From a virus (lineage: Duplodnaviria > Heunggongvirae > Uroviricota > Caudoviricetes), in the IMG/VR virus record IMGVR_UViG_3300024346_000020: a stretch of 64,000 nucleotides of DNA; one strand, 5' to 3'. Made by a program: the position numbers and the translations under genes. Below, in pieces: positions 1 to 47,706 of the stretch. Within the stretch, counting starts at the first letter, position 1; each line of letters starts with the position of its first letter. The notes beneath the pieces are model-generated. The model ran no database searches. It was not told where the DNA came from and saw only the letters and a program-made list of their open reading frames with translations.

Positions 1-159
1 ACAAGTCATGTTCATTATGTGGTAGGAAATGACCAGATGAGATATTTTGGTGCTGATTTAGAAAGTTTTACTGAAAGTTCTATTCCATTTTCGAATGTAG
101 AGGCCTTGCAATATACAAATGTATTAAATACACCGGTAGAAATAAGAGTTTATAATTAA
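1..159 (+). CDS. C-terminal fragment of an upstream protein (partial at window start), hypothetical
   Basis: Open frame from position 1 to TAA at 157-159 with no internal stop; not in the ORF track because it lacks a start codon within the window. Confidence 0.4.
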   Translation, partial: TSHVHYVVGNDQMRYFGADLESFTESSIPFSNVEALQYTNVLNTPVEIRVYN

Positions 160-208
160 GTTGACTTACAATTTTTTATATATAGTTATATAAAAATATT
201 TTAATAAA

Positions 209-2356
209 ATGAGTTATAGTAGTGATAGTTTTTTAAAGCCAATAGGCTCTGATAAAAGTATAAGACTTTTTGATAATGGTGGAAATTTAACATTTACTTT
301 AAAACCAACATTCATTACAGATGTTACTTCAGAAGCAAATCTTTTAAAAGTTACACTAAAAAGTGGTAAGCTAATTACATTAGATTTTATCAACTTTGAT
401 GATACCATATTAGCACAATCTAAACTACAACAACAAATTTCAACATTATTACAAACAAATGATTATGTTGATAATTCAACTCAAGGAGTTGTTGGTTATG
501 TTACTGCACCATTTAGTTATAGTACATTTTTAAGACCCATAACCGAATCTGATAGAAATATTAAGATCATGGATGTTGATTTAATAGTAAAATATACTAT
601 CGATCCATTTTATATTATAAACACAAATGTATCTAATAATCTTTTAAAAATAAGTTTAAAAAGTAATAAAGGTGTTACGTTAGAATTCTCAACTTCTAAT
701 GAAGCTAAATTATCAATTATTAGATTAAAAGAACAAATAGATGTTCTAACCGATAAAGTTCCTTTAATTGTTGATAAAAATGTTTTAAATTATATAGAAA
801 GTAAAATTTTTAGTGGACCAACAGGACCCCAAGGAGCAGAAGGATTACAAGGTCCAGAAGGATTACAAGGTCCAGAAGGTCCACAGGGAATTGAAGGTCC
901 AGAAGGAATACAAGGACCACAAGGACCCCAAGGAGCAGAAGGACCACAAGGAATTGAAGGACCAGAAGGAATTGAAGGACCACAAGGACCACAAGGACTA
1001 CAAGGTCCACAAGGTCTGGAAGGTCCACAAGGTCCACAAGGACCACAAGGAATTGAAGGTCCACAAGGAATTGAAGGTCCACAAGGTACTGCTGGATTTG
1101 GTATAGAATTTCAAGGTCAATTAGGATCTACATCATCATTACCACAGTCATCTACACAAGGGTTTGCATATCTAATAGATAATGTACTTTGGATATATGA
1201 CTCATTTGGTAATTGGGTTGATGGTGGTAATATACAAGGTCCACAAGGAATACAAGGTCTTGAAGGTCCGCAAGGTCCAACAGGTCCAGATGGGATTCAA
1301 GGTCTTGAAGGTCCTACCGGTGCGACTGGTGCTGGTAATTTTTCAGTTGGATTTGAATATGTAATTGGTGTTTTTTCTGCAACTAATTCACTTGTAAATG
1401 GAACTATAAACTTTTCAGCAACCTCATCACTTTCTACAGGTACTTTATATGTAAATACAAATGATATAAATAGTACTTCACTTGCAACATACTTTAATAG
1501 TATAAGTGGAGCTGGATCTTTATCAAATAGGGGTACTTTAATGTTAAGTAAAAAAGGAAGTACTAATACATTTGCCGTTTATAATATATCAACAATAGCA
1601 AGCCTAACAACACATAGGAATTTTAGTGCAACTTATCTATCTGGAAATGGAACATTTAATCAAGGAGATTCAATTATATTCTCTTTTGTTAGAACAGGAA
1701 CTCAAGGTAGTCCAGGTAGTACGGGTGCTCAAGGTAGTCAAGGAATACAAGGTATTCAAGGACCTCAAGGTAACCAAGGAATTCAAGGTGATCAAGGACC
1801 ACAAGGACCAACAGGACCAGCAGGACCACAAGGACCACAAGGACCACAAGGTACAGGAGGTACAGGAGAAAGTATTTCATATCAATATATACAAGGTAGT
1901 TTAGAAACTTTGGTAGAAAGTACAATTGCCGAGCTATCTGGTTTAGTAACTAATGATAGAGGAGATGAATATAAAAAATATAAACTAAAGGGTAGGGCTA
2001 TATTTGATAACTCAGATTCAATCTATGCATTATTAGTTGGAGTTATCTCAATTGATGGTGATGCACCAAAAGAAATAATAAATAGTGCCAATTCATCAAC
2101 AATAGCTACAAAAGGAGTGAATACATTTGTGAATACAACAACTCCATTTACAGTAAATGGATTGGTTAAAGATTTTACTACTGGTAATATAATACCACTA
2201 ACAAATGCTTTCTTTATATTAGATAATAGTATTGCAAGTGAAAGTGATTTTTTTATAACATTATTTGCAGAATCTACTGAAATCTTTTCTGGTTATGTAG
2301 AAATTGATTTAGAAATACTAATTAGTGAAAGACTAAGTGTGACATATTCAAACTAA
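209..2356 (+). CDS. collagen-like (GXY triple-helix repeat) structural protein with a tandem N-terminal domain duplication
   Basis: Three blocks of uninterrupted G-P/E/Q-X triplets ([13 protein letters not shown]..., [19 protein letters not shown]..., [16 protein letters not shown]...[10 protein letters not shown]). Two related ~100-aa N-terminal domains (LTFTLKPTF...[13 protein letters not shown] and IVKYTIDPF...[13 protein letters not shown]). Non-collagen beta-rich C-terminus. Confidence 0.85.
818..1095. repeat. GXY-encoding nucleotide repeat block 1 (ggtccacaagga-type 9-nt periodicity)
   Basis: Directly visible tandem ggwccwcaagg units; accounts for the shadow ORFs 810..1082(-) and 813..1106(+). 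Confidence 0.8.
1222..1336. repeat. GXY-encoding repeat block 2
   Basis: caaggtccacaagg / caaggtcttgaaggtcc repeats. Confidence 0.7.
1693..1868. repeat. GXY-encoding repeat block 3
   Basis: caaggtagtcaagg...caaggaccacaagg tandem units. Confidence 0.7.
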
Positions 2357-2684
2357 AAAATATATAAAAATAATGGCTACAGAAACAAATCCACTAGAAA
2401 TAACTACAATAAATGGTTATTTTTCAAAAATATATGAAGGAAAGCAACTTGGAGACTTTTATGCTGCACTAAATGATAGACTATCTTCTTATGTACAAAA
2501 GTAGAGCATAGTGATCCGGTGGTTCCGCATGGAAGGGCCATCGCTCAAAGGATAAAAGAAGCTATAGAAAGATTTGTTATGGACGGAACTCCGATCCCTC
2601 AATCGATAATTGATGAAAGAGAAGAATTAAAAACACAATATCATAATACAATAAACTCTTTATAAAGATTTCTATATAAGTTAG

Positions 2685-5600
2685 ATGAAAGTTAGAGCAC
2701 ATACCTGTTATTTAGGTCATACTGGTTTTGCAGCACACGCAAGAAATTTTTTTAGAGAATTATCAAAACATGTTGATTTAAGAGTTAGAAATTATACTTG
2801 TGATACCAATCCTAAATTAGATGAAATTGACTATTCAATTTTAGATAAAATTACATTAAGTAATTCAGATAATACATATTCTGATTACCCTATATCACAC
2901 TCATTTCCAAATTTACCTTGGACACATAAACAAGATTTTGAACAAGATGTTGATATTGTACTTATGGATATGCACCATAACTATTTCTACCAAGATTATA
3001 AAGCTAAAATTAAAATAGCTTACACTGTTTGGGAAAGTACTGAGCTAGAGCAAGTATTTTTCAATCAACTTCTAAAGTTTGACTACATTTGGGTTGTTAC
3101 ACAATGGCACAAAGATATGATTATTAAACAAGGTTATCCTGCTGATAAAGTTTTTGTTGTAAATGAAGGAGTAAACTCTATATTTTTTGACCATATTGAG
3201 AGTAATAATGATAAATTCAAATTTATGTTTTTTGGTAGATGGGATTATAGAAAAGCAGTACCAGAGATAATTGATACCTTTTTAAAATCATTCCCGAATA
3301 ATGATAATGTAGAACTTATTTTAAGTGCAGATAATCTCTATTCAGTAGATGGATTTAATTCAACTGAGGAAAGATTAAAACATTATAACTTTAATGATGA
3401 TAGAATAAAAGTTCTTCATTTTCCAAAATATGAGGAGTATGTAAACTATATTAAAACCGGTAATGTCTTAATTACGTGTGCTCGTAGTGAAGGTTGGAAT
3501 ATCCCTTTGATAGAAGCTATGGCAGCAGGAACTCCAGTAATATACTCAAATTGGGGTGCTCAATTAGAATTTGCACAAGGATTAGGAAATCCAGTTTCTA
3601 TAAGAACAGAATTACCTGCAAACATTGGTAGAGACTTAGGACTTGCTGGGGATACACCTGGGCTATATGCGGAACCTGATTATAACGACTTACAGAGAGT
3701 TTTAGTTGATTGTTATGAAAACTATACTAATAAAAAAGAAACTGCCTTAAAAGATGCCGAAATAATTAAAAATAAATTTAATTGGACAAGGATAGGTCAA
3801 GATTCATTCAACATATTAAAAAGTTTAAACTTGATTACTAAATTAGATGCAGTTGTAATAATGTCACATGCAGATGACCAAGAGAAACTAAACTTATTAG
3901 AACAATGTATAAATGTAAATAAGAATAAGGGTTATACTGTTATTTTATCATCTCATATAAAAGTACCTGATTATATATCAGACTTGGTAGATTATGTAAT
4001 TATTGATAAAGATAATCCAACTATTAATTCAAAGGAAGCAAATTTATATGGTTATCTACCATATACATATTGGAATCACACTGACTGTGATATTACATTA
4101 CCATTTCAATATAATCATAGTTATGCTGCACTTAAACTAATAAAAAATGGGTTATCGCTTGCAATTGTTAATAGTTTTAAAAAGGTTCATTTTGTAAATT
4201 ATGATTATATAATAAATACCAATTTACTAGAAGAAAATTCACATTTATTAAATAAATATGAATTTGTTGGATATGGATTTAATATAGGAGAATCTATATC
4301 AGTCAATAGTGGGTTATTTTCAGTGCAGAGTAATTCTTTTTATAAAATCATAGAACCATTAAATTCAAAGAAAAATTATTTTAAATATAAAAATAAGGGA
4401 TTTTTAGAAGATGTTATTGGTTCTGCTTTAGAGGAATTTAATATAAAAACAAATATTAGTGATATAGAACTCTTAAAACCAAACAATATTATAAATGCAG
4501 TCGAGATAAATAATAGATGGTTGAGTAAGTCTGGTTGTATAGTAGGGAATTCAGAAGAAGACTATTATATTATATTTATGCAAAATAATAATCAAAAGTA
4601 TATAATAAACAATAAGTATGAAATTATTGCGGATATACCCCGAAAATTAGTTAAAATTGATAAAAGTGATATATTAAAAGGAATCACCATATCAGATGAA
4701 CAAGAAACATTTATCGATTTATTTAATAGTGATAACTCAAATGCAAATATTATCATTAAAAATCATTTAATAAAGAGAGATATTAATGATAATAAATTTG
4801 AAATCAAAAATAGAATTGATATAAAGTATTTAGATGGTCCATTTGTTGAGATACTTGGTGATTCTGGTTATAAATATCTTGTTAAGTTTATTGATTCTGA
4901 TAAAAATAAAGTATTATACGAATGTATAATATCATCAAATCAATGGACTAGATGCTCTATTAGATATTTTGTGAATTGGAGAATTCAAGTTGAAAATCTA
5001 ACAACTAAAGAGATAACTATAGATGAATTTAACTTAAATAATAAAATCGTTAGAGTTAGCTTAGAATCATCATCTTTAGGAGATACCTTAGCTTGGACAC
5101 CACATATAAATGAATTTGCAGAAAAAAATAACTGTATTGTGATTGTTAGTACATTCAAAAACTTTTTATTTGATACTGAGAAATATCCTAGATTAAATTT
5201 TGTAAATCCTGGAGCAACTTATGAGAATACTTATTGTAGTTATACGATAGGATGGTTTTATGATAATAATAAAATGAATGTTTATAAAAATCCAAGAGAA
5301 TTTAAAAATATTCCTTTACAAGCAACAACATCCGATATTTTAGGATTAGAAGAAAGTTCAATAAAACCATTTATTAAAGTAAATGATAAAAATTCTCCAT
5401 TAGATAATAAATATATCTGTATTGCAGTACACTCAACTGCACAAGCAAAGTATTGGAATAATCCAACTGGGTGGCAGGATATTGTAGACCATTATAAATT
5501 AAATGGTTATGAAGTAGTTATTGTAAGTTCAGAAGAAGATGGATATATGGGTAATAAAAATCCAGAAGGTGTTATTCATATGAAAGATACTTCAATGGAT

Positions 5601-5915
5601 ACCTTAATAACATATTTATACAATTGTGAGATGTTTATTGGTATAAGTTCAGGTATCAGTTGGTTATCTTGGGCTTTAAATAAAAAGACTGTGATTATAT
5701 CAGGATTTAGTAAACCTATTACTGAACCATTAGATGAAAATATTATTAGAATATTTAATGAATCTGTTTGTAATGGATGTTTTAATTCACATAGATTAGA
5801 TGCAGGTGATTGGAATTGGTGTCCTATAAATAAAGGAACTGATAAACAATTTGAATGTAGTAAATCAATTACATCTAAACAAGTAATCTCTACAATAGAG
5901 TCTAGTAAAAATTAA
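2685..5915 (+). CDS. large multidomain glycosyltransferase (GT4-like Rossmann domain plus a C-terminal GT9/heptosyltransferase-like domain)
   Basis: ITCARSEGWNIPLIEAMAAGTPVI is the canonical GT4/GT1 E-x7-E sugar-donor motif. The C-terminal CIAVHSTAQAKYWNNPTGWQDIVDHYKLNGYEVVIVS resembles the ADP-heptose transferase (GT9) fold. 1076 aa. Confidence 0.7.
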   Translation: MKVRAHTCYLGHTGFAAHARNFFRELSKHVDLRVRNYTCDTNPKLDEIDYSILDKITLSNSDNTYSDYPISHSFPNLPWTHKQDFEQDVDIVLMDMHHNYFYQDYKAKIKIAYTVWESTELEQVFFNQLLKFDYIWVVTQWHKDMIIKQGYPADKVFVVNEGVNSIFFDHIESNNDKFKFMFFGRWDYRKAVPEIIDTFLKSFPNNDNVELILSADNLYSVDGFNSTEERLKHYNFNDDRIKVLHFPKYEEYVNYIKTGNVLITCARSEGWNIPLIEAMAAGTPVIYSNWGAQLEFAQGLGNPVSIRTELPANIGRDLGLAGDTPGLYAEPDYNDLQRVLVDCYENYTNKKETALKDAEIIKNKFNWTRIGQDSFNILKSLNLITKLDAVVIMSHADDQEKLNLLEQCINVNKNKGYTVILSSHIKVPDYISDLVDYVIIDKDNPTINSKEANLYGYLPYTYWNHTDCDITLPFQYNHSYAALKLIKNGLSLAIVNSFKKVHFVNYDYIINTNLLEENSHLLNKYEFVGYGFNIGESISVNSGLFSVQSNSFYKIIEPLNSKKNYFKYKNKGFLEDVIGSALEEFNIKTNISDIELLKPNNIINAVEINNRWLSKSGCIVGNSEEDYYIIFMQNNNQKYIINNKYEIIADIPRKLVKIDKSDILKGITISDEQETFIDLFNSDNSNANIIIKNHLIKRDINDNKFEIKNRIDIKYLDGPFVEILGDSGYKYLVKFIDSDKNKVLYECIISSNQWTRCSIRYFVNWRIQVENLTTKEITIDEFNLNNKIVRVSLESSSLGDTLAWTPHINEFAEKNNCIVIVSTFKNFLFDTEKYPRLNFVNPGATYENTYCSYTIGWFYDNNKMNVYKNPREFKNIPLQATTSDILGLEESSIKPFIKVNDKNSPLDNKYICIAVHSTAQAKYWNNPTGWQDIVDHYKLNGYEVVIVSSEEDGYMGNKNPEGVIHMKDTSMDTLITYLYNCEMFIGISSGISWLSWALNKKTVIISGFSKPITEPLDENIIRIFNESVCNGCFNSHRLDAGDWNWCPINKGTDKQFECSKSITSKQVISTIESSKN

Positions 5916-5947
5916 ATAAAGTAAAATATATTTTTAATATATACTCT

Positions 5948-6901
5948 ATGATAAAGAAGTATTTAGAGTTTATTAAAGAATCTGAATTACAAGACTTCAA
6001 TTCACTTGGAGAGTGGGTTGAGTCTTTGTATGATGATGAATATGTTAAAAACATAGTAAATCGATTTTTAGGAGATATACCTTCTAATATAAGACTGTCT
6101 AATGCTATAAATACATTAGAACAATCTGAACAAGATGATATTAAATCACAAATTGATACTTATCTTCAAAATGGTATCGAAGAAAAAGAACCTGAGATTT
6201 TGGTTTCAACCGAAATCAATGAGTCTGCTGAAATTACAATTGCTGGTAAATCAATCTTTAATTCATTTTTAAAATCATTGACCGCACTAGGTCAAAAAGA
6301 GAAAGGCTCAAATGTTGAAAAATGTCCTTCTCATTTCTTATTATTTTATTATTATCCAGACCTATCATCAGAAGATGTTAAATCTGTATTTAGTAGATTC
6401 AAATCATTGACAAGATATTTAGATATGATTGATTATGGTAAAAATGAATGTGGTCTTTACTTTGGTATTAAATGTGATGGAACATTTGAATATGGTGTTA
6501 CTTATGATAAATTAAATCCAATTGGACAATTCAAACTAACTCCTTCAGTTTTAAGATGGTTAGTAACTATTGAATCTAAATCAGCAGCTTCTTTGAAAAA
6601 GGAAATAGTAAATATATCACATACTGATATGTTACTTCTTGGTAAGATTAAAACCGATATGAAAGATTTTAAACCTGGATATTTTGAGAAAGAATCTAAA
6701 CCAACAATTAGCGATAAGGTAATTTCATTTGGATACTATGGTATTGGTAAATGGGATAATGGTAAATTAGATGAAGGTGAGTTACTGAATATTAAAAATA
6801 ATTTCACTGCTTGGGTTATGACTAAAAAATGGGGTCAAAAAGTTCTGATTAGTGTTAAACCACACTCATTTTGGTTATATGTACATATTAAGTTGAAGTA
6901 A
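5948..6901 (+). CDS. hypothetical protein with a capsid-targeting-like N-terminus (MIKKYLEFIKE)
   Basis: Long ORF; N-terminal M-[IK]-K-Y-L-E-F-I-K-E contains I-x-E. TAA stop overlaps the next gene's start (ATGA). Confidence 0.6.
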   Translation: MIKKYLEFIKESELQDFNSLGEWVESLYDDEYVKNIVNRFLGDIPSNIRLSNAINTLEQSEQDDIKSQIDTYLQNGIEEKEPEILVSTEINESAEITIAGKSIFNSFLKSLTALGQKEKGSNVEKCPSHFLLFYYYPDLSSEDVKSVFSRFKSLTRYLDMIDYGKNECGLYFGIKCDGTFEYGVTYDKLNPIGQFKLTPSVLRWLVTIESKSAASLKKEIVNISHTDMLLLGKIKTDMKDFKPGYFEKESKPTISDKVISFGYYGIGKWDNGKLDEGELLNIKNNFTAWVMTKKWGQKVLISVKPHSFWLYVHIKLK

Positions 6902-7335
6902 TGAAGTATTTGAAGTTTTATAAATTATTTGAAAATTTTTATATTGAAGACTTTATAAATGAACTAAAGGAAATAAGTGAGATGTATTTGGCTTACTTAC
7001 TAGATGATAATAATATTGAGGTTGGTGTATATGAATATCAATTCATAGATGAGTGTATAGTAATAGAGGTCTACTCAGTAGATGATAAAAATATAAAATG
7101 GGATAAACTTAAAAATCATTTAATTCCATTTGTAGAAATTATAAATAAGAAATATAAGTTAGTTCCAGAGAATACGGATTTAGATGATGAACAAGTTTTA
7201 GATGATGAACAAGTTGTATTACTATGGGATAGTAATAGTGAAACTACTCCATTTACAATAGAGGAATTAAAATCACATCCTATAAAAGAAGCTTCAGGAA
7301 TGAGCATTTATGTAAAATATAATAATGAGATATGA
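6901..7335 (+). CDS. hypothetical acidic protein with a capsid-targeting-like N-terminus (MKYLKFYKLFE); internal DLDDEQVLDDEQV duplication
   Basis: Start is translationally coupled with the previous stop. Tandem peptide repeat. Acidic. Confidence 0.6.
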   Translation: MKYLKFYKLFENFYIEDFINELKEISEMYLAYLLDDNNIEVGVYEYQFIDECIVIEVYSVDDKNIKWDKLKNHLIPFVEIINKKYKLVPENTDLDDEQVLDDEQVVLLWDSNSETTPFTIEELKSHPIKEASGMSIYVKYNNEI

Positions 7336-7619
7336 GATATTTAAGAAAATATAACGAGAACACTTTTGATAAACATCATGCAGTTGTAAAGATTAAAGAA
7401 CAGTTCACAGAAGAAACTGTTTCTGAAATGCTTGCAGATGAGGTAAAAGAATGGGTTGAAGAAGGCGATTATGAAGCAGTCAGTAATGGCGAAGCAGAAG
7501 ATATTATCATTCATCAACTAATTTCTTGGTATAAAAAAGAGTTTAATAAACAATTAGATGAAGAACAAGAGTCTGAACTAGAAACTGAACTTAAACAAGA
7601 ATACAAAACTCTAAACTAA
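7332..7619 (+). CDS. hypothetical acidic protein with a capsid-targeting-like N-terminus (MRYLRKYNE)
   Basis: ATGA overlap with the upstream gene; highly acidic (EEGDYEAV...EEQESELETE). Confidence 0.55.
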   Translation: MRYLRKYNENTFDKHHAVVKIKEQFTEETVSEMLADEVKEWVEEGDYEAVSNGEAEDIIIHQLISWYKKEFNKQLDEEQESELETELKQEYKTLN

Positions 7620-7654
7620 AATGATAATTTTTCTATAATAAACAAATTTTTATT

Positions 7655-7978
7655 ATGAAACATTTAAAAAATACCAGAAAAGATACCCAGAATAAATGGG
7701 ATAATCTTATTGGAAATATAGGTCTAACTGGATCTAAAGCCACCTGGATGTCTCAGTATGTTGGTTTACAATCACAATCAATAACACAATCAAATTTTCC
7801 TAGTATGCTTCCAATTGCAATGAAAGTTGCTGCACAAACTGTAGGATTAGATTTAGTATCAGTTCAACCAATGTCTGCACCACTAGGTACTTTACATTAT
7901 ATGGACTATCAATATGGTGACATGAAACATATAACAAGAAAAAGAAAAATTAATAATATATTTAAAGTCAATGAGTAG
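7655..7978 (+). CDS. hypothetical protein
   Basis: ORF only. Confidence 0.45.
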   Translation: MKHLKNTRKDTQNKWDNLIGNIGLTGSKATWMSQYVGLQSQSITQSNFPSMLPIAMKVAAQTVGLDLVSVQPMSAPLGTLHYMDYQYGDMKHITRKRKINNIFKVNE

Positions 7979-8138
7979 ATATATAGCACCTGAAGTCAAG
8001 CTTTATGTGGGTAAAAGACTTAGAAAATATAATCGTTTAAAAAAATTGAGAAGATTATTAGGTCTACCGGAAAAGAATATGTTTATTAGTCCTGGAGTCT
8101 ATACAAGGGAATATGATTCTAGTTTTGTAGAAATGTAA
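7971..8138 (+). CDS. small basic hypothetical protein (55 aa, below the ORF-track cutoff)
   Basis: ATG at 7971 overlaps the previous stop; MSRYIAPEVKLYVGKRLRKYNRLKKLRRLLG...; fills an otherwise empty 190-nt gap. Confidence 0.25.
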   Translation: MSRYIAPEVKLYVGKRLRKYNRLKKLRRLLGLPEKNMFISPGVYTREYDSSFVEM

Positions 8139-8172
8139 AAAAGAGGATCATGAAGAAGTAATATATACTTCT

Positions 8173-8505
8173 ATGACAAACATATATTTAATTTGTGCGG
8201 ATATAGAAGGTGAAAAACTACATAAAATAGGTTTCACTAAAAGAAAGATTGAAACAAGACTAAAAGAGTTTAAGACTGGAAATGCAGCAGATCTTTATTT
8301 AGTAGATTCTTTCAAATCGAAATGGGGAACTAAGATAGAATCAAGTCTCCATAGAATCTTTAGAAGTAAAAGAGTTAGAGGTGAATGGTTTAATCTAACA
8401 AAAGAAGATGTACACTCATTTAATGGTTACTGTCAAACCTTACACGATAACTTTGAGTTTATCACTGAGCACAATACATACTACTTAGATAAACCCAACT
8501 TTTAG
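8173..8505 (+). CDS. T5orf172 / MUG113 (GIY-YIG-like) domain protein
   Basis: IYLI...KIGFTKRKIETRLKEF...LHRIF...RVRGEWFNL matches the T5orf172 domain signature (GIY-YIG superfamily), including the terminal GEWF. Confidence 0.6.
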   Translation: MTNIYLICADIEGEKLHKIGFTKRKIETRLKEFKTGNAADLYLVDSFKSKWGTKIESSLHRIFRSKRVRGEWFNLTKEDVHSFNGYCQTLHDNFEFITEHNTYYLDKPNF

Positions 8506-11079: not shown

Positions 11080-11271
11080 ATGAATAATAATATAACATTT
11101 GGACCAAAAGGTTTGGATGTAACACAGGGTTTAAATGGACCAATTGGAGTAACAGGTCCACAGGGTCAACCTGGTCCATTAGGAATGACACAAATAGAAT
11201 ATAGAAAATTTTTAAGAATAAGAAAAGTAAATAAATTAAGAAAAATATGGGATTTAACAAGCGCTATTTAA
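11080..11271 (+). CDS. mini collagen-like peptide (63 aa)
   Basis: GPKGLDVTQGLNGPIGVTGPQGQPGPLG, about 9 GXY triplets, followed by a basic tail. Confidence 0.35.
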   Translation: MNNNITFGPKGLDVTQGLNGPIGVTGPQGQPGPLGMTQIEYRKFLRIRKVNKLRKIWDLTSAI

Positions 11272-24896: not shown

Positions 24897-25622
24897 ATGA
24901 ATAAACGAAAAAAAATATTAGTATTCTCTGGTGCAGGACTCTCGAAAGAAAGCGGGATTGAAACCTTTAGAGACTCTAAGGAAAGCTTATGGAACAATTT
25001 CAAGATTGAAGATGTTGCTACCATCGATGCATGGAGAAAAGATAAAGAATTAGTACTAAAATTCTACAATGAACGTAGGGCACAATTAAAAGAAGTAAAA
25101 ACAAATCTAGCACATAGACTTATAGCAGAGTTAGAGAATGAATTTGATGTAACTGTAGTTACACAGAATGTAGATAACTTACACGAAAGAGCAGGATCTA
25201 CTAACATAATACACTTACACGGAGAACTAACCAAAGTACGTTCAACATTAGACCCAAGACTAATCTACGATTGGACAGAAGACGTAAATATAGGAGATAA
25301 ATGTGATAAGGGATCTCAACTAAGACCACATATCGTTTGGTTTGGTGAGGCATTAAATCCAGATTATATGAGTAAAGCAGTAAAAGCAGCAGAACAATGT
25401 GACTATTGTATAATAGTCGGAACTTCTTTACAAGTTTTACCTGCAAATGAAATTCCATTTTTAACAGATGTAGAAGTACCCGTATATTATATTGAACCAT
25501 CTAATATAGATATGGTTATGTATGATATACCAGACTATAAATTACCTTATTTCCACCATGTGAAAAAGGTTGCCACAAAAGGAATGCAATATATTTTTAA
25601 CCAATTAAACAAACAAATATAA
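24897..25622 (+). CDS. Sir2-family NAD-dependent protein deacylase / ADP-ribosyltransferase (CobB-like)
   Basis: GAGLSKESGIETFRD (GAGIS-ESGI-TFR), QNVDNLHERAG (QNID-LH), HGELTKVRS and IVWFGE motifs, all characteristic of sirtuins. Confidence 0.8.
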   Translation: MNKRKKILVFSGAGLSKESGIETFRDSKESLWNNFKIEDVATIDAWRKDKELVLKFYNERRAQLKEVKTNLAHRLIAELENEFDVTVVTQNVDNLHERAGSTNIIHLHGELTKVRSTLDPRLIYDWTEDVNIGDKCDKGSQLRPHIVWFGEALNPDYMSKAVKAAEQCDYCIIVGTSLQVLPANEIPFLTDVEVPVYYIEPSNIDMVMYDIPDYKLPYFHHVKKVATKGMQYIFNQLNKQI

Positions 25623-25625
25623 ATA

Positions 25626-25880
25626 ATGGAAGATAGAGATTATATTTTTGATAATTTTAGAAAGTCATATAGTATAAAAGATAAATACTACGATTTAGGT
25701 AATTATATGAAAGTAGATAAGTATGGTAATTATACCAGTGCTCTTGAAGACTTTTTAGGTTACTACAAAGCAGATAAGTCTGCAAAACGTGAAGAAACTC
25801 CGCAAGAAAGAGAGGCTCGTTTATTAAGAGAGAAAGCAGAAGCCAGAGAAGCTAAAATTGATCAAATACTTAAAAAATAG
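25626..25880 (+). CDS. hypothetical small protein with a charged helical C-terminus
   Basis: ORF; REETPQEREARLLREKAEAREAKIDQ. Confidence 0.4.
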   Translation: MEDRDYIFDNFRKSYSIKDKYYDLGNYMKVDKYGNYTSALEDFLGYYKADKSAKREETPQEREARLLREKAEAREAKIDQILKK

Positions 25881-26129
25881 TATGGATAGTGGAGCAACTA
25901 CTTATAATGATGTTATGAAAAACTTTCATTTGACTATAAATAATTTAATGAGACCTATTAAAAGAAAAAAGATAATAAAAAGTGTACTTATTAAAACCGA
26001 GAAGAATAGGTAGTACTTATATGAACATAAAAAGAATAATGGATTCATATAAGTCATATAAGAGATATTCTCGTAAAGAAAGTATAAAAAGAATATTTAA
26101 TATATAGTTTATCAAAAATAATTAAATAA

Positions 26130-26687
26130 ATGGATTTACAAGAACTATTAAACGAATGGAATATTAAATGTGATGTTACTACACTACTTGCTATGTGGAA
26201 TGAATCACATAGATCTTATCACACTTTAAATCATCTAAATGATTTAATCGAACAAATAAATGAGGGAAAATCTAAATACTCTCAAAAGGAATATGAGAAA
26301 TTACTAATTACTGCACTTTTTCATGATTGTATTTATGATCCAATGAAAACTGATAATGAAGAAAGATCTGCAGACTTCTTTATAGAATGTTGTCAAGATA
26401 AAGATAGTAAAGATAATAAAGAAATTAGACAAATGATTTTAGATACTAAAAATCATGAAGCTACTACAAACTTATCTGAATCATTTAACTACTATGATAT
26501 GAATATTGTTGAAAGAGATTTCGATCAGTTGCTAGAGTGGGAGAAAGGTATCTCAGAAGAATATAAAGGATATGGTGATTCATATAAAGATGGTAGATTG
26601 AAATTTTTAGAATCTTTATTAGATAAATATCCAAATAATACAGAAAACTTATTAAAATTAGTTGACTGGATAAAAGAAAATTACTAA
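26130..26687 (+). CDS. HD-domain phosphohydrolase-like protein
   Basis: H...H (HTLNH) followed by ALFHDCIYDP (HD dyad) at the correct spacing. Confidence 0.5.
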   Translation: MDLQELLNEWNIKCDVTTLLAMWNESHRSYHTLNHLNDLIEQINEGKSKYSQKEYEKLLITALFHDCIYDPMKTDNEERSADFFIECCQDKDSKDNKEIRQMILDTKNHEATTNLSESFNYYDMNIVERDFDQLLEWEKGISEEYKGYGDSYKDGRLKFLESLLDKYPNNTENLLKLVDWIKENY

Positions 26688-26692
26688 AAGAA

Positions 26693-26718
26693 AAACCACT
26701 CATTTGAGTGGTTTTTTT
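26693..26718. terminator. bidirectional rho-independent terminator between convergent genes
   Basis: aaaaCCACTCAttTGAGTGGttttttt. Confidence 0.8.
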
Positions 26719-26719
26719 A

Positions 26720-27460
26720 TTAAAATCTATTAAATTTTGTAATTAAACTTTCTGCAACTACAGGTTCTTGTGTCTCAGCTGGTTTTTCAACACCTGAATG
26801 ATGTTTTGAAATAATATCTACAATATCAGCTCTTTTGTTACATTCATCAATAAATGTTTTATAAGGTGTAACTAACTCTTGATTCCAAACAGTACCTGAT
26901 AAGGCATCCGCAAGATTTTTTTCAGTTTCTGGATTTACTTCACCATCAAGTACTTCAACACTACCCATACTTACTTTATCATTTTTTACCCAAGTTCCTT
27001 TTTCTATATCAAAAAGTAATCCATTTGAAAATGTTAGAGTTGGATTTTCTGCAGCTAAATCAAATTTATAATCAAATTTAATTACTGCACTTGACCAAAT
27101 ACGACCATGCTCTTCCAATTCTGTTTTTCCTTCTGCCGCAATTTCTTTATCTAACATTGGAATTATATTTACAACTTTCTTATCATTAAATGTTTCATCA
27201 GTTAGTAAAAGTTTACCTCCTTCAACTTTTAACTTTCCTTCATTTGGTTTATAATTTACCAAATATGAAATAGGATGACTTTTTTCTTCATCAGTAAGAT
27301 CGGAACCACCCATAAATCTAAATGTATAAGCAAATCCTTGTTCTGCAATATTTTGTTTTTTTAACATTTCTCCAATAAGTTTTCCTTTATCAGATTTACC
27401 TTTAACAGCAGCTTCTAATCTATCTAGGAAACTCTCGTTGAATTTTTTAATATATCTCAT
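26720..27460 (-). CDS. hypothetical protein with a capsid-targeting-like N-terminus (MRYIKKFNESF)
   Basis: ORF; N-terminus matches the recurring M[KR]Y[LI]K motif. Confidence 0.55.
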   Translation of the reverse strand: MRYIKKFNESFLDRLEAAVKGKSDKGKLIGEMLKKQNIAEQGFAYTFRFMGGSDLTDEEKSHPISYLVNYKPNEGKLKVEGGKLLLTDETFNDKKVVNIIPMLDKEIAAEGKTELEEHGRIWSSAVIKFDYKFDLAAENPTLTFSNGLLFDIEKGTWVKNDKVSMGSVEVLDGEVNPETEKNLADALSGTVWNQELVTPYKTFIDECNKRADIVDIISKHHSGVEKPAETQEPVVAESLITKFNRF

Positions 27461-27534
27461 ATTACAATAATAATTTTTTATTATATATTAAAAAAAATAT
27501 AAAAAAAATTCACTTTTTAAGGTGGATTTTAAAA

Positions 27535-28644
27535 TTATTTCTTAAATTCTTTTTTATCAGAAGAAATGTAGAACTTATCGAAGTCATAATACTTAGAATA
27601 AACTTCTTTAATCTTTTTCAAAGTAACCTCTTCTAATATATCATACACCGACCAACCCGTGGGATTTATCCATTGATTCACAGAAGCATATCTATTGATT
27701 TCATCTTTTTGTTTTCTAACACCATAGTATTCTTTAACAAGGTTAAATCTTTCTTTAGTTAAAAACTTATCTGGATTTGTAATAACTTTCTTAACTGCTT
27801 CTACAACCTCATCAAAGTTTTTATTTGAAGTCAATGTTGAAATAGAATTTAATCCTTTATCATTTACTCTTGACTGATAACAATGAACGAAATAAACTAA
27901 TCCTTTTTTCTCTCGTATCTCTTGATATAATGGAGATTTCAATCCTAATGATAACATAGCATTGATAAAATGAACATATGCAAAGTCTTCTTCAATTACT
28001 GGTGAAAGAATTACAACAGAAGTTTTATCTTTAAAATCATTGTTTAATTCTAAATCTGTATCGTGATTACCAAAACTTAAATTAGTTACGATTTTTCTTT
28101 CTTGAAACTCAACCGCTTTATTTTTATAATCTTTGTTTTTAGATACATTGATAATTTTAGTTGGTTTTGCATATTGTAATTCAAAGAAGTTAAGACAATC
28201 CATAAATTTTAGATTCTCTAAATCTTTTTTCAATCCAATTGGATCATAATCATTAAATAACTTTCTAGAAAGATTTAACATATGAGATTGAGATTGATCA
28301 TTGAAACAATCCATATACTCTTCAAGAACAATTTTTCTTTCGTTTTCAAATTCCTCTTTAGTAACTTTAAAAGAAGTTAGTAAGTCGACAAATTGATTTT
28401 TATATTTATTTACCTTTTCATCTAATCCAGTTAAATAGAATACAATTTCATTTGATGAAGTATAAGCATTCCAGTCGATGCCGTCTCTATCAAAGTCTTC
28501 TTGTAAGTGATCGAATGATTTGCATAAAAGGTGTTCCATAATATGACTTATCCCATACCAACCCGGTTTTTCTAAGTTTGTTGAACCCTCATACACAACA
28601 TAGAATCCACTTAAATCAGTTGGACTTTTTAAATTTACTATCAT
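27535..28644 (-). CDS. M16-family (insulinase/pitrilysin-like) zinc metallopeptidase
   Basis: GISHIMEHLLCKSF contains the inverted zincin motif HxxEH, at the N-terminal position typical of M16 peptidases. Confidence 0.6.
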   Translation of the reverse strand: MIVNLKSPTDLSGFYVVYEGSTNLEKPGWYGISHIMEHLLCKSFDHLQEDFDRDGIDWNAYTSSNEIVFYLTGLDEKVNKYKNQFVDLLTSFKVTKEEFENERKIVLEEYMDCFNDQSQSHMLNLSRKLFNDYDPIGLKKDLENLKFMDCLNFFELQYAKPTKIINVSKNKDYKNKAVEFQERKIVTNLSFGNHDTDLELNNDFKDKTSVVILSPVIEEDFAYVHFINAMLSLGLKSPLYQEIREKKGLVYFVHCYQSRVNDKGLNSISTLTSNKNFDEVVEAVKKVITNPDKFLTKERFNLVKEYYGVRKQKDEINRYASVNQWINPTGWSVYDILEEVTLKKIKEVYSKYYDFDKFYISSDKKEFKK

Positions 28645-28748
28645 ATTTTAATTGTTTTATTTATTTATATAATTAAATTTTTATTAGTTTAGTTTTGTTT
28701 TATCAAAAGATAGTTGTATATTTGTATTTCAAAATATAAAAACGAAAT

Positions 28749-29396
28749 ATGATTACATTAGGATTATCAGGTAGTAGATACTCGGGAAAGAAAACAACTG
28801 TTGAGGTATTCAAGAGAATAGGTATACCCGTGTTTGATGCAGACCTTATTTTAAAGTTTATCTTAAATCATAATCACGAGTTATTAAGTGATGTAAGAAA
28901 AGAGATAGGTTCTGATTTCTTCATAAATCACCAATTGAATTTTCGTGGAATGAAGAAAGCTACTTTTGATAAAGTTCTTGATATCATTGAAGATGATCTC
29001 TTCAATGCCTTTACTAAGTTCTGTGATAGATATGAAAGAAAGGGTGCTATCTATACCATTTTTCATTCATCACTTTTATTTGAAAGGGAATGGGATAAAA
29101 AAATTGATTTAAGTATTACTGTATTTTCTCCAGAAGGAGATAGATTAAAAAGAGCTCGTTATCAAACTAATGAAGGTTTATTAAACATTAGAGATAGAAT
29201 GAAAACTGAAATGGATCCACTTCAGAAAAATCAAATGGCAGACTATATTATAAACAACTACAATAATGGTGAAGTAGTAGGTCATATCGGTTTACAACCT
29301 ACTAAATTACCAAGTTTAGTAAAACAAGTAAATCAAATCGATCAAAAAGTTATTGATGAATATTTATATAAAGAAAGCTTAATACTTTGTGTGTAA
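28749..29396 (+). CDS. P-loop nucleotide kinase, T4 gp1 dNMP kinase-like (or dephospho-CoA kinase-like)
   Basis: N-terminal MITLGLSGSRYSGKKTT matches the L-SG-x-x-SGK-TT P-loop of T4 dNMP kinase and CoaE. Size about 215 aa. Confidence 0.45.
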   Translation: MITLGLSGSRYSGKKTTVEVFKRIGIPVFDADLILKFILNHNHELLSDVRKEIGSDFFINHQLNFRGMKKATFDKVLDIIEDDLFNAFTKFCDRYERKGAIYTIFHSSLLFEREWDKKIDLSITVFSPEGDRLKRARYQTNEGLLNIRDRMKTEMDPLQKNQMADYIINNYNNGEVVGHIGLQPTKLPSLVKQVNQIDQKVIDEYLYKESLILCV

Positions 29397-29490
29397 TGAA
29401 AAATGTAATAAGAATAAAACTTATCAACCAATGTGCTGGTAAATTACAATTTGTAAAAAAATAAAATCAATTTGTACCAATTTAGGTTTA

Positions 29491-29871
29491 ATGGAAGTCA
29501 AAGACATTGTTGATAATATCTGTACTCAACCATTTAAGTATGTTGAGTTTGAAATTCCAAATAATAGCAGTATTTATGATGTTAAAAAAGTTTTAGATGA
29601 TTTGTCTTGGACTAACATACATGGTGACGGATGGTCGACGCACTCACCGGATGAAATGGCTTTTTACAACTACGAGATAAATGGTGGTGTACAATGGCAG
29701 AGAGAGGCAAATATGTTAAAATTAGGAATAGGTTCGCGAGAAGATTATTTAGACTTTATTAAGCAATCTATTCAAACAAATTTTGGTAACTCAGAAGAAT
29801 TGATTACATTTGTACTCAATAAATTATCAGACGAACAATTAAAAGAAACATTAGAAAAAATAGAATATTAA
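29491..29871 (+). CDS. hypothetical protein
   Basis: ORF only. Confidence 0.4.
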   Translation: MEVKDIVDNICTQPFKYVEFEIPNNSSIYDVKKVLDDLSWTNIHGDGWSTHSPDEMAFYNYEINGGVQWQREANMLKLGIGSREDYLDFIKQSIQTNFGNSEELITFVLNKLSDEQLKETLEKIEY

Positions 29872-30288
29872 ATGGCAAACGCACATATACATTCAGTATC
29901 TTCCGCTCGTAGATTTGGTGGTCAACCAGAGGATTACTTAACAATTCACATAAAAATGGATTGTTCTAAAGCTTATTTATCAGATAATAGACATAGAGCT
30001 TTAACACACCACGGGTTTTGGATACACGAGGTGATGATACCTATATTCGGATACACAATCACAAACTCAGATGATAAAGTTGTATCTGTGAAAGATATAT
30101 GTGAACAACATATATTAGAAGACTTTGGAATGAGGTTTATTCCAACCGCACAAGATTATCTTGAAAATTTGGAATTCAAAGAATGGATGCAAAACGGATT
30201 AAAGGATAATCCATCTTCTGCGATAAAAATTACACAAAAAAATAAAATCGGACAAATACCTAGTCCAACTAATACAATTTTAGACTAA
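29872..30288 (+). CDS. hypothetical protein
   Basis: ORF; ATG immediately follows the upstream TAA. Confidence 0.4.
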   Translation: MANAHIHSVSSARRFGGQPEDYLTIHIKMDCSKAYLSDNRHRALTHHGFWIHEVMIPIFGYTITNSDDKVVSVKDICEQHILEDFGMRFIPTAQDYLENLEFKEWMQNGLKDNPSSAIKITQKNKIGQIPSPTNTILD

Positions 30289-31013
30289 TGATAGTAATAT
30301 GTAAGAAAGGTAGTACCCGATTAGTAAAGGGACTTAGATATGAAGTAGTTGCTATGAATAATAGTCCTGCTAGTAGCTACAATAGTGTACGAATTAAAGA
30401 CTTCGGTGCGTACTCTGTAAAAAACTTTACCACTATTGATGGTAAAGAACTACCAAAAATTGATATACCATTACCACAGAACTTTTATAGATCTAGACTA
30501 TTAAAACCAGAAGAGGTTACTAAAGGTGATGTAATTGTTTGTACCCGAGACACATATAAAACATTAGTACAAGATGGTATGTATCGAATTGAAGAAATTA
30601 CCGTTAAATCAACACCTAGAACTTCTTATAATGGTACTATACTAACACCAAATGTAGAACATTTCATTAAGCTTGAAGGTGTTAAAAGAAAATTAAAGTT
30701 CAATGGTTGGACTTTTAGAAAATTGACAACTGCAGAAGCACGTGAAATGGCATTAGGTCAGTTACTCTTTGATGAAGAAACTGGAATTATCACTACAAAT
30801 GATGTAAGAAAAATTGACTTAGTACAGAATAAAAATTTAGAACTAATTAGATTGGTATCAAAATCTATATTAGACCCTAATAGACATGGATTAAAAATAC
30901 TTGACTGGGGTATTCAACAAGTGTCAAAGAAAACAGAAGTAAAGGCGGATGATTATGAAGCACTTTTAAATATGTCTTTAAAAGATATATTAGAACTAAT
31001 CGAAACTAATTAA
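30288..31013 (+). CDS. hypothetical protein
   Basis: ORF; overlaps the upstream stop. Confidence 0.4.
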   Translation: MIVICKKGSTRLVKGLRYEVVAMNNSPASSYNSVRIKDFGAYSVKNFTTIDGKELPKIDIPLPQNFYRSRLLKPEEVTKGDVIVCTRDTYKTLVQDGMYRIEEITVKSTPRTSYNGTILTPNVEHFIKLEGVKRKLKFNGWTFRKLTTAEAREMALGQLLFDEETGIITTNDVRKIDLVQNKNLELIRLVSKSILDPNRHGLKILDWGIQQVSKKTEVKADDYEALLNMSLKDILELIETN

Positions 31014-31024
31014 GAATAAGTAAT

Positions 31025-31052
31025 ACAATTAAAAACAATTAAAACAATTAAA
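31025..31052 (+). promoter_or_regulatory. tandem ACAATTAAAA repeats (x3) immediately upstream of the flotillin-like gene start
   Basis: acaattaaaa acaattaaaa caattaaa, ending 2 nt before the ATG at 31055. Confidence 0.35.
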
Positions 31053-31054
31053 TT

Positions 31055-32953: not shown

Positions 32954-33018
32954 TACCAGAATAATCAGGAATACATACTCCATAATAAAAGATTATTTTT
33001 ATCCTTTTTTAAAAAATT

Positions 33019-33048
33019 ACACCCCTATTTTCTAATAGGGGTGTTTTT
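33019..33048 (+). terminator. rho-independent terminator after the flotillin-like gene
   Basis: ACACCCCTAttttctaaTAGGGGTGTttttt. Confidence 0.8.
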
Positions 33049-33074
33049 ATTTATAATTTTTAATATATACAATT

Positions 33075-33821
33075 ATGTACAACAAAATATATGACTTCTG
33101 TAAAGTAAGAAATGAAGGAACTATCTATGATAATAATTCACAGACTCCACCTCCAAGAGTTCAATTTCTAATGGAACTTTTAGAGTCAGAAGGTATTAAA
33201 TACGAATTAGATAAATTCTATACTGCTGAAGTAACAGGATATAATATTATCTTACAAGGTACATCAAACAGAATGGTTGTCGCACATCATGATGTAAGTA
33301 ATCCTAAAATAGATAATGCAAATGATAATAGTGCGTCAGTAATCAATTCTATAATGATTAAGAAGCTTTTGCCAACAATGAATGTAATTCTATTAGATGG
33401 TGAAGAAGTTGGGGGAGTGGGCTCTAATAGAGCTTCAGAACTAATCAATAATGGTAAATTTGGTGATATAGAATGGGTACTTAATTTAGAGTTAAGTGGT
33501 AAAGGTGGTAAACACTTTTTTATTGGAGATTATCCAGGTCCTTTAACAAATCATATTAAAACTCTTTTTGATTGTCCAATAGTTAAAACACCTTTTAATG
33601 ACTCAGTTACATTTAGAAGAAATGGAATTGATTCAGTAGTAATAAATCCTTTACCTCCTGTTTTGGAAGGTAAAACAAATGTCAAATGGAATGAAGATAC
33701 ATATTTAGATTACTCTATGTTATTTAATTGTCATTCATCAAAAGACACGATTGCAACAATTGATCCAACAGATATGAAAGAATTTGTTGAGGATGTTGTT
33801 TTAAAAATATTAACATATTAA
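33075..33821 (+). CDS. putative M28/M20-like zinc peptidase-fold protein
   Basis: MVVAHHDVSNPKIDNANDNSASV...LLDGEEVGGVGSN resembles the H-D...D...EE metal-ligand pattern of M28 aminopeptidases; weak. Confidence 0.3.
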   Translation: MYNKIYDFCKVRNEGTIYDNNSQTPPPRVQFLMELLESEGIKYELDKFYTAEVTGYNIILQGTSNRMVVAHHDVSNPKIDNANDNSASVINSIMIKKLLPTMNVILLDGEEVGGVGSNRASELINNGKFGDIEWVLNLELSGKGGKHFFIGDYPGPLTNHIKTLFDCPIVKTPFNDSVTFRRNGIDSVVINPLPPVLEGKTNVKWNEDTYLDYSMLFNCHSSKDTIATIDPTDMKEFVEDVVLKILTY

Positions 33822-35021: not shown

Positions 35022-35040
35022 TAAAAATAATATATACTAA

Positions 35041-35217
35041 GTGAAATATTTAAAACTTTTTGAAGCATTTGTAGCAGACATGCCACAAGTAGAATTATCG
35101 GATAAAACAATTGATGATGTTCTTAATCCTGATTTCTTTGAAGAAGATATTGAGGATGAAGGTTCTACAATAGATTCAAATGGTGTTATACATATAAAAA
35201 ATTGGAACACATACTAA
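35041..35217 (+). CDS. small hypothetical protein (58 aa, GTG start) with a capsid-targeting-like N-terminus (V/M)KYLKLFEAF
   Basis: GTG at 35041 to TAA at 35215-35217 is an open frame; the motif is shared with five or six other ORFs; not in the ORF track (non-ATG start, under 60 aa). Confidence 0.3.
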   Translation: MKYLKLFEAFVADMPQVELSDKTIDDVLNPDFFEEDIEDEGSTIDSNGVIHIKNWNTY

Positions 35218-35222
35218 GAGAA

Positions 35223-35250
35223 AAAGCTATCAAAATGATAGCTTTTTTTA
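35223..35250 (+). terminator. rho-independent terminator (perfect 10-bp stem)
   Basis: AAAGCTATCAaaaTGATAGCTTTttttatttt. Confidence 0.75.
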
Positions 35251-35253
35251 TTT

Positions 35254-35664: not shown

Positions 35665-35700
35665 CTTAATAAATTATTTTTATTAAACTATATATTAAAT

Positions 35701-35736
35701 AAAAAACCCTAGATTTCTCTAGGGTTCATTTTTTTA
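35701..35736 (-). terminator. rho-independent terminator downstream of the S1-domain gene (hairpin flanked by A/T runs on both sides)
   Basis: aaaaAACCCTAGatttctCTAGGGTTcattttttt. Confidence 0.7.
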
Positions 35737-35754
35737 AAATCGGTCGTTTTTATT

Positions 35755-47426: not shown

Positions 47427-47706
47427 TGAAAGGAGATATAACAGAAGCTATTATTAGAGAAACTTCAAAAGGACGTATTAGATTTACAAGACTTTTCAAT
47501 TAGAGCCAAGAACTTTGGTTCTAACATTGAGGCAGCAGCTTTCAAAAATATTGAAGAAGGCATAGTAAAAAATCTTCACAAAGCTAATAAAGAACAACTA
47601 CATGTAATGTTAAATGGTTGGAAGTTTCGATACTATACCGAATTCAATAAAGACAAAAGCTTGATTGTTAGAGAATTAAGAGAAAATAGATTAAAAGATA
47701 TATTAA

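Follow-up and report, generated by a model that had tools for sequence, protein, structure and literature searches.

The stretch of DNA analysed here (hereafter the window) comprises 64,000 nucleotides of a virus of the Caudoviricetes, IMG/VR record IMGVR_UViG_3300024346_000020, and carries near its left edge two co-directional genes: one for a 715-residue collagen-like protein with blocks of Gly-X-Y (GXY) triplets, and, with this gene directly in front of it, an open reading frame (ORF) at positions 2685-5915 of the + strand, which encodes a 1076-residue protein with three transferase-like modules (GT4, GT-A and TibC-like). A preliminary description, made from the letters of the window, had proposed that the two form a system by which the phage glycosylates a collagen-like fibre of its own. 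Comparison with related phage and bacterial loci lends support to the core of this proposal, and a self-encoded O-glycosylation line for virion fibres is suggested as the best reading of the comparative genomics. The features of the two genes, in window coordinates, are the following:

209-2356, + strand: mosaic collagen-like fibre protein, candidate acceptor; 715-residue ORF, Pfam Collagen 84.8 bits (cut-off 27.2)
209-808, + strand: N-terminal module of the fibre, two tandem repeats of ~95 residues (residues 1-98 and 99-200), internal local alignment score 124
815-1102, + strand: GXY block 1, residues 203-298, 32 triplets of the GPQ/GPE/GIE/GLQ type, with no Lys and only 2 Thr
1238-1336, + strand: GXY block 2, residues 344-376, 11 triplets, including GPT twice and GAT
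1337-1696, + strand: Ser/Thr/Asn-rich non-collagen domain, residues 377-496, 13-16 Ser/Thr per 40 residues, kept in the ortholog of locus L002
1697-1867, + strand: GXY block 3, residues 497-553, 19 triplets, including GxQ types
1868-2356, + strand: C-terminal globular module of the fibre, residues 554-715, kept in L002, no family match
2685-3824, + strand: transferase module 1, GT4 (GT-B fold); PF00534 46.5 bits (cut-off 26.4), phrog_2170 E 4.6e-31 over residues 13-381
3825-4826, + strand: transferase module 2, predicted GT-A-fold domain (~389-597) and beta-sandwich (~618-700), with an invariant HFVNYDY from residue 502
4827-5915, + strand: transferase module 3, putative protein O-glycosyltransferase of TibC/Aah type (BAHT); PDB 4rap, TIGR04414

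The three long GXY blocks reported in the preliminary description are borne out, since the runs are uninterrupted in all of them (32, 11 and 19 triplets), with a 45-residue linker between blocks 1 and 2. This is the sole long GXY ORF in the 64-kb window, and chance composition therefore does not explain it; the window contains no (GTS)n gene. PHROG tail-fibre families match the whole protein, mainly via the GXY blocks, and a PHROG search with the non-collagen modules only gave no match except a weak tail-fibre match of a 44-residue segment between collagen blocks. The label ‘tail fibre’ is likely because of these mostly GXY-driven matches and of the context. The corresponding slot in related contigs holds proteins of different lengths. 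In L002, whose contig is 97% identical downstream, the ortholog has 1316 residues and keeps the N- and C-terminal modules. In L126 (a 402-kb contig with a transferase 92% identical to that of the window), a 1331-residue ortholog is encoded immediately upstream of the transferase and combines a 41-triplet GPT/GPQ/GEI block with a 42-triplet GSS/GTS block; the N-terminal module of the window fibre is 47-55% identical to the N-terminus of this ortholog and has no PHROG match. In L037 (a 516-kb contig), the slot is taken by a 2323-residue protein with a 138-triplet GSS/GTS run. Every cassette in the fibre slot of the window lineage carries GXY repeats.

The 1076-residue protein had been described as containing a GT4-type motif, and this holds: the motif (EGWNIPLIEAMAAGTPVI) begins at residue 269, Pfam Glycos_transf_1 (PF00534) scores above threshold, and the EX7E pair E269/E277, located inside CARSEGWNIPLIEAM, is nearly invariant in the alignment of homologs. 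The accompanying description of the enzyme as a two-domain protein has to be given up in favour of three modules. Residues 381-714, which match no sequence family in Pfam or NCBIfam, were modelled with AlphaFold2 from 34 homologs, giving a confident model (pLDDT 90, pTM 0.84) in which a Rossmann-like domain of GT-A type precedes a beta-sandwich. A Foldseek comparison of this middle domain with viral models yielded as top match a phage protein automatically named ‘Glycosyltransferase Aah/TibC’, and the further named matches were nearly all glycosyltransferases of phages or giant viruses, with no sugar nucleotidyltransferase among them; by this model, the middle domain has a GT-A fold. More than 1,600 metagenomic homologs of the protein were collected, and these adopt several architectures: the same three modules (1076-1117 residues); three modules followed by a C-terminal S-adenosylmethionine (SAM) methyltransferase (1270-1358 residues), the commonest form among the 120 best matches; GT4 and TibC-like modules without the middle domain (~750 residues); and, in viral-contig loci, the middle and TibC-like modules (~705 residues) or the TibC-like module alone (390 residues).

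The C-terminal module had been called GT9-like, and Pfam Glyco_transf_9 does match it (34.7 bits, cut-off 22, residues 900-1034); more exactly, however, it is a homolog of TibC and Aah. A phmmer search against the PDB aligned query residues 728-1071 with residues 39-383 of the 406 residues of E. coli TibC (4rap, E 1.3e-52), in an alignment that reaches from the N-terminal beta-barrel through the catalytic domain to the iron finger. The NCBI equivalog TIGR04414 (‘autotransporter strand-loop-strand O-heptosyltransferase’) scored 283.3 bits with a cut-off of 200, and Pfam TibC_1st fell short of its cut-off (22.2 bits versus 27). Two autotransporter adhesins, TibA and AIDA-I, receive O-linked heptose on Ser residues from TibC and Aah, and protein glycosylation is made more plausible by the fact that the characterised members of this domain family glycosylate proteins (PMC4358343). 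The Pfam matches to GT9 (heptosyltransferase) and GT4 could also be read as those of an enzyme that remodels host envelope glycans during infection (lipopolysaccharide core, capsule or S-layer glycan), for example in superinfection exclusion, lipopolysaccharide being a substrate of many GT4 and GT9 enzymes; weak NCBIfam matches to lipopolysaccharide heptosyltransferase I and to polysaccharide transferases point the same way, as does the location of the gene, in the 19-locus phage lineage, within a cluster of ORFs that resemble sugar-modifying genes, judged from their N-terminal sequences only. Such a role is nevertheless unlikely: the TibC/Aah match is far stronger (283 bits for TIGR04414 versus 21 for the lipopolysaccharide enzymes of NCBIfam), the TibC-specific beta-barrel and Cys4 iron finger are present, no membrane segments were noted in the protein, and collagen-like genes accompany its gene in phages as well as in bacteria, as described below.

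In TibC, Asp110 is the catalytic base, Thr226, Lys230 and Trp305 contact the beta-phosphate and the sugar, and four Cys residues coordinate iron (PMC4358343). The catalytic residues, on which the preliminary proposal hinged, are retained in the transferase domains: Asp110, Thr226, Lys230 and Trp305 correspond to D800, T918, K922 and W993 of the window protein, and Cys339, Cys342, Cys358 and Cys370 to C1029, C1032, C1046 and C1058, from which an iron finger is predicted. None of these residues varies among the 120 sequences compared, the window protein and 119 homologs. It is highly probable that the TibC-like module is an active protein glycosyltransferase. Two further positions are of importance for the donor. 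Arg286 of TibC hydrogen-bonds N1 of adenine, and its replacement (R286A) abolishes or largely diminishes activity, while Pro300 determines selectivity for D,D-heptose (PMC4358343). In the window protein the former is L974 (A, T, L, V or S across the 120 phage homologs) and the latter S988, a Ser as in Aah (Gly or Ser across the homologs); the tip of the thumb (Phe265/Val266 in TibC) is Tyr-Met, with a 3-residue deletion just ahead. Since the adenine-contacting Arg is lost, the donor may be other than ADP-heptose, and heptose as the first sugar seems a somewhat doubtful choice. In addition, a dodecamer ring such as TibC forms may not be possible for a protein that carries two more domains.

If enzyme and fibre belong together, as the preliminary description supposed, their genes should be found side by side elsewhere, and the pairing does recur in several phage lineages, and with a stand-alone enzyme in bacterial chromosomes. 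Phage loci with a TibC-like domain were grouped into 15 lineages, and in 7 of these a GXY ORF lies within 1.5 kb of the transferase ORF. The GXY gene is directly adjacent in the window lineage, where a collagen-like gene is found immediately upstream in L126, L037 and L039 as well, and in L044, L036, L014 and L003/4; in L042 and the cultured Microcystis phage Mel-JY01, giant (GTS)n ORFs lie 1.7-1.9 kb upstream of the transferase, and three more lineages have a GXY ORF at a distance of 3.7-6 kb. This adjacency could potentially be explained by a shared gene block, the enzyme acting on virion proteins generally or on another specific one, be it a Ser/Thr-rich structural protein, the capsid or the sheath. 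The window does encode other large Ser/Thr-rich structural proteins (59999-61792 and 61792-63984, 26-27% Ser+Thr, the latter with tail-spike PHROG matches), in Mel-JY01 the (GTS)n ORF is separated from the transferase by a Ser-rich ‘structural protein’ that is not collagen-like, the protein encoded immediately upstream in L040 is Thr/Ser-rich and has no collagen repeats, and a collagen-like neighbour is missing from the available flanks of two phage lineages. We nonetheless consider this explanation rather improbable, given that an artefact of the phage structural block cannot account for the bacterial loci, 22 of 33 of which encode a (GTS)n-type protein close to the enzyme.

The partners in some of these phage loci escape routine annotation. 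Proteins of the (GTS)n type are probably under-annotated in metagenomes, because their repeats are open in several frames. In Mel-JY01 (L001, GenBank PP395634), nucleotides 2-3052 (+) form an open frame of at least 1017 codons, mostly GTS/GSS, which is cut by the start of the record and is annotated as three short coding sequences on both strands; the transferase homolog of this phage, at 4750-8430, bears ‘methyltransferase FkbM’ as its sole annotation, and a ‘cytidylyltransferase-like’ protein, considered as a possible sugar-nucleotide gene, was rejected since it has only a marginal CTP_transf_like match. In L042 (JGI contig Ga0480368_0000009), nucleotides 2-6214 (+) form an ORF of at least 2071 residues, chiefly GTS/GSS/GTD triplets, which the gene caller broke up into several small genes, some on each strand. 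The protein encoded directly upstream of the transferase in L040 (6948-9743, +) has 931 residues, 32% of them Thr/Ser; its repetitive sequence appears beta-helix-like by eye and is in style nearer to classical autotransporter passengers than to collagen, and a 721-residue GTS-repeat protein is encoded ~6 kb further upstream. In L023 and L025, the TibC-like gene is clustered, at ~9.0-12.8 kb in locus coordinates, with ORFs that resemble a sulfotransferase, an APS kinase and a cytidylyltransferase by N-terminal sequence, which hints at sulfated or otherwise decorated glycans.

Bacterial synteny provides a line of evidence that is independent of adjacency in phages. Relatives of the TibC-like domain were surveyed by an alignment-based scan with one genome per species (a single-sequence scan of bacterial genomes returned none), the best 80 of 313 relatives were fetched, and their loci were split at 39% identity to the domain of the window, 33 being at or above this value and 47, referred to as classical, below it. 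A GXY or (G-S/T-S)n ORF is present within 1.5 kb in 22 of the 33 loci of the first group, mostly 40-220 bp away, and in 0 of the 47 classical loci, anywhere within ~8 kb. The GXY-linked loci come from Methylobacter, Methylomicrobium, Polaromonas, Burkholderiaceae and others, and hold almost no further (GTS)n ORFs elsewhere; the partners are small proteins, most with N-termini that resemble signal peptides or those of lipoproteins, followed by runs such as GTSGTSGTS, and this collagen-linked clade pairs with Pfam-Collagen proteins. Two sampled classical loci adjoin AIDA-repeat adhesins, the known type of substrate, and these loci thus provide a positive control for the expectation that such an enzyme has its gene beside that of its substrate. 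The two groups also differ at the adenine-contacting position: Arg286 is found in 45 of the 47 classical members, and the collagen-linked clade has another residue there in 30 of 31 bacterial members (I/V/L/M) and in all 120 phage members. No variation is seen, in the phage group or in either bacterial group, at Asp110, Lys230, Trp305 or the Cys4 motif. The switch of partner, from AIDA-type to collagen-like, tracks with a change in the active site at residue 286.

Two other explanations can be weighed against the same loci. The adjacency seen in the window could be a coincidence, the transferase having no defined phage function and the fibre being one cassette of a hypervariable slot; the slot is indeed mosaic (715, 1316, 1331 and 2323 residues in the window, L002, L126 and L037, respectively), and a 64-nt rRNA-like scar is found in the intergenic region. 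This is very unlikely, however, as all slot cassettes of the window lineage carry GXY blocks, the catalytic residues are strongly conserved in 120 homologs, and the bacterial synteny is independent evidence. The protein could alternatively glycosylate phage DNA carrying hypermodified bases, as happens in T4-like and other phages; the relatives of the window have a T4-like genome context (Gp23, a gp15-like protein, an S77 prohead protease and terminase), and phage GT-A and GT-B enzymes that modify 5-hydroxymethylcytosine are known (bioRxiv 10.1101/2023.12.21.572611). Against such a role, no hydroxymethylase or TET-like gene was found among the scanned window ORFs, and the bacterial orthologs adjoin secreted repeat proteins. 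Furthermore, we know of no characterised DNA transferase in the TibC/Aah family. DNA glycosylation is, like the remodelling of lipopolysaccharide, an unlikely function, and indeed an extremely improbable one.

The 1076-residue protein is thus proposed to be a single-polypeptide glycan assembly line; that it plays this role, with the fibre encoded upstream as its likely client, is in our opinion fairly probable. Its substrate would probably be the class of collagen-like fibres encoded alongside. The TibC-like module would act in the host cytoplasm late in infection, placing the first sugar, taken from a nucleotide sugar, onto Ser/Thr hydroxyls of the fibre, both in G-S/T-x triplets and in the Ser/Thr-rich domain located between collagen blocks. 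The GT-A and GT4 modules would then lengthen the glycan, which in most relatives would be capped by the fused SAM methyltransferase, and the glycosylated fibre would be built into the virion. Most hydroxyls of the window fibre lie outside the GXY blocks, in the non-collagen domain formed by residues 377-496, which is a plausible target of O-glycosylation. The benefit would probably be the stabilisation of hydroxyproline-free triple helices, by analogy with Thr glycosylation of (GPT)n, and/or protection or altered adsorption. In this regard, (Gly-Pro-Thr)10 is triple-helical only with glycosylated Thr, collagens of viruses and bacteria are enriched in Thr triplets, and Thr glycosylation has been proposed as a stabiliser of microbial collagens (PMC11923368). 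A more general idea, put forward tentatively, is that the TibC/Aah branch without the adenine-binding Arg could be a dedicated O-glycosyltransferase for hydroxyproline-free microbial collagens, of the (G-T/S-S)n and related GXY types. In Methylococcales and Burkholderiales it would operate as a stand-alone enzyme encoded next to secreted proteins of collagen type. In large aquatic phages of the T4-like kind it would form one polypeptide with two transferases for elongation, mostly together with a methyltransferase, and would sugar-coat virion fibres. Glycosylation would replace hydroxyproline as the stabiliser of the helix.

A number of observations weigh against this proposal. On the side of the acceptor, the GXY blocks of the window fibre hold only 3 Ser and 10 Thr (in GPT, GAT, GST, GSP, GSQ, GTQ, GTA and GTG triplets), and a fibre consisting mainly of GPQ/GPE/GIE/GLQ is atypical when compared with the conserved partner, which is saturated with Ser/Thr in GTS/GSS triplets. 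TibC, moreover, recognises a folded beta-helix via its iron finger, and a collagen-like acceptor is structurally unrelated to it. In L002, the collagen centre of the fibre is swapped for ~800 residues of non-collagen sequence, and two small ORFs lie between the fibre and transferase genes. No collagen-like ORF was found in the available flanks (~2.8-8 kb) of the largest phage lineage, with 19 loci, or of the L023 lineage, and adjacency in phages could be inflated by the fact that both genes are held in a recombination-prone region. On the side of the enzyme, loss of the Arg that contacts adenine bears on the donor and, strictly, on activity itself; nucleotidyltransferases have the same fold as the middle domain; and neither GmhA/HldE/GmhB-like genes nor others for sugar-nucleotide synthesis were detected among the Pfam-scanned ORFs of the window.

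Comparison with known systems places the proposed glycosylation line between several precedents. The closest is TibC/Aah itself (BAHT, TIGR04414; PDB 4rap/4rb4), to which the C-terminal 350 residues align end to end, through beta-barrel, GT-B catalytic domain and Cys4 iron finger, with the catalytic Asp retained along with Thr and Lys as phosphate contacts and Trp as sugar contact, and which likewise has a repetitive, Ser-rich putative substrate encoded alongside. In contrast to TibC/Aah, the window enzyme is virus-encoded and fused to two more transferase domains, its neighbour is collagen-like (GXY) and not an AIDA-type beta-helix, Leu takes the place of Arg286 (A/T/L/I/V across the clade), and Ser or Gly occupies position 300. 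Among viruses, the preliminary description had invoked mimiviruses, in which adjacent virus-encoded glycosyltransferases were taken to modify collagen-like fibres. A closer comparator is A064R of chlorovirus PBCV-1 (as well as A111/114R), with which the window enzyme shares a multidomain, virus-encoded, glycan-building architecture. A064R extends the N-linked glycan of the capsid protein of a eukaryotic virus and includes no initiating protein O-transferase; beyond the GT-A fold, a sequence relationship between the two is not detectable. Mimivirus L230, for its part, combines a lysyl hydroxylase with a glucosyltransferase acting on hydroxylysine, and is encoded outside the glycogene cluster and not beside collagen genes (PMC9614988). 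The likeness is limited to a virus with collagen-like proteins and an enzyme that glycosylates them (in the window, by prediction). The hydroxylysine analogy fails because the GXY blocks of the window contain no Lys in 186 residues; in addition, Pfam scans, which covered the transferase and 30 larger ORFs of the window, revealed no hydroxylase domain, and the enzyme family targets Ser. The proposal of self-encoded fibre glycosylation is thereby upheld in part, through the catalytic residues and the synteny, and loses its mimivirus model and its two-domain enzyme.

Precedents for glycosylation without hydroxylation also exist. Bacillus anthracis BclA and Thr-glycosylated worm cuticle collagen are described as hydroxyproline-free GXT helices with O-glycans, in which glycosylation can replace hydroxyproline as helix stabiliser (references 27, 28 and 103, discussed in PMC11923368). 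They differ from the present case in that no TibC-like enzyme is known there, and in that the repeats are GTS/GSS in the relatives, or GPQ/GPE in the window, and not GPT. Similarly, mycobacteriophages are reported to encode transferases that O-glycosylate their own structural proteins at the C-termini of capsid and tail-tube subunits (Freeman et al. 2023, summarised in PMC12619734). This resembles what is predicted here, namely a phage-encoded transferase for the structural proteins of the phage itself; however, the mycobacteriophage enzymes belong to other families, and their system involves neither a collagen-like acceptor nor a multidomain fusion.

The homology itself is not new, since automated pipelines already label such phage proteins ‘Aah/TibC’, but no paper was found in the literature searched on phage TibC-like enzymes, on the fusion architecture, on the collagen-linked subfamily or on glycosylated collagen-like fibres of phages. 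Bacteria and viruses, which have no prolyl hydroxylase, commonly encode collagen-like proteins that are rich in Thr/Ser triplets; to our knowledge, there is no dedicated enzyme family for glycosylating microbial collagens, and none was found in the literature searched. The main value of the present analysis lies in a testable candidate for such an enzyme, and the idea is directly testable because the structure of a homolog is solved, the catalytic residues are known and the peptide substrates to try are obvious. If the proposal were true, the autotransporter heptosyltransferase family would gain a new class of substrate and extend to viruses, phage virion glycosylation would have a second, mechanistically different case, and the multidomain capsid-glycan enzymes of chloroviruses would have a phage counterpart. 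Glycan-coated fibres would also bear on host recognition, particle stability and evasion of immune responses or proteases in large phages that are abundant in freshwater.

The region between the fibre and transferase genes presents features of its own. Positions 2495-2558 of the window form a 64-nt stretch that is 92-98% identical to domain V of bacterial 23S rRNA, which came to light via rRNA-contaminated ‘phage’ records in GenBank. It stands where L002 has ~920 bp encoding two small paralogous ORFs, and a remnant ORF at 2374-2505 corresponds to the first 43 codons of one of these, the rest being lost in the window. This stretch, which is not present in any other fetched locus, is either an assembly chimera or the scar of an illegitimate recombination with host rRNA. 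An Rfam scan of the intergenic region gave no match, no terminator-like site was found between the two genes, and scans for promoters, terminators and T4 late promoters (TATAAATA) around them returned nothing informative.

The preliminary description had also pointed to a mini collagen-like ORF outside the fibre-transferase pair:

11080-11271, + strand: mini collagen-like ORF, 63 residues, 7 GXY triplets, basic C-terminus; Pfam Collagen 20.1 bits, below cut-off

The ORF thus exists, with a collagen score that stays below the Pfam cut-off. It is kept in L002 (54 residues) and L126 (53 residues), with in-frame indels within the GXY tract and a constant, basic C-terminus (VEYRKFLRVRKINKL.KIWDLTSAI), is not present in L037 or L038, and is probably a genuine small gene; we found no evidence to tie it to the fibre and transferase system.

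As for the genome from which the window derives, its G+C content is ~25-37% (AT-rich), and a 52-codon ORF tail at its left edge has no match in any fetched locus; an exact-sequence look-up of the fibre protein, aimed at the DNA upstream of the window, gave no record. The contigs of relatives reach 386-650 kb, and these sizes, together with the T4-like context, indicate that the window derives from a large phage, possibly a huge one. A full-length tyrosyl-tRNA synthetase (Pfam tRNA-synt_1b, 267 bits) is encoded beside a cluster of nine tRNA genes (Trp, Phe twice, His twice, Lys, Arg and Ser twice), at 55247-56503 (+) and 58724-59782 (+), which is compatible with a huge-phage genome. Pfam searches with 20 further window ORFs identified Sir2, M16, M28, CoaE, SPFH, S1, NAD-ligase, sigma factor and TyrRS families, among others. 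In the regions 24897-36843 and 45591-49909, these correspond to a set of auxiliary genes that is uncommon for a phage, namely those for a Sir2-family protein, M16 and M28 peptidases, a dephospho-CoA kinase, a 632-residue SPFH/Band-7 protein, an S1-domain protein, an NAD-dependent DNA ligase with a BRCT domain and a sigma-70-family factor.

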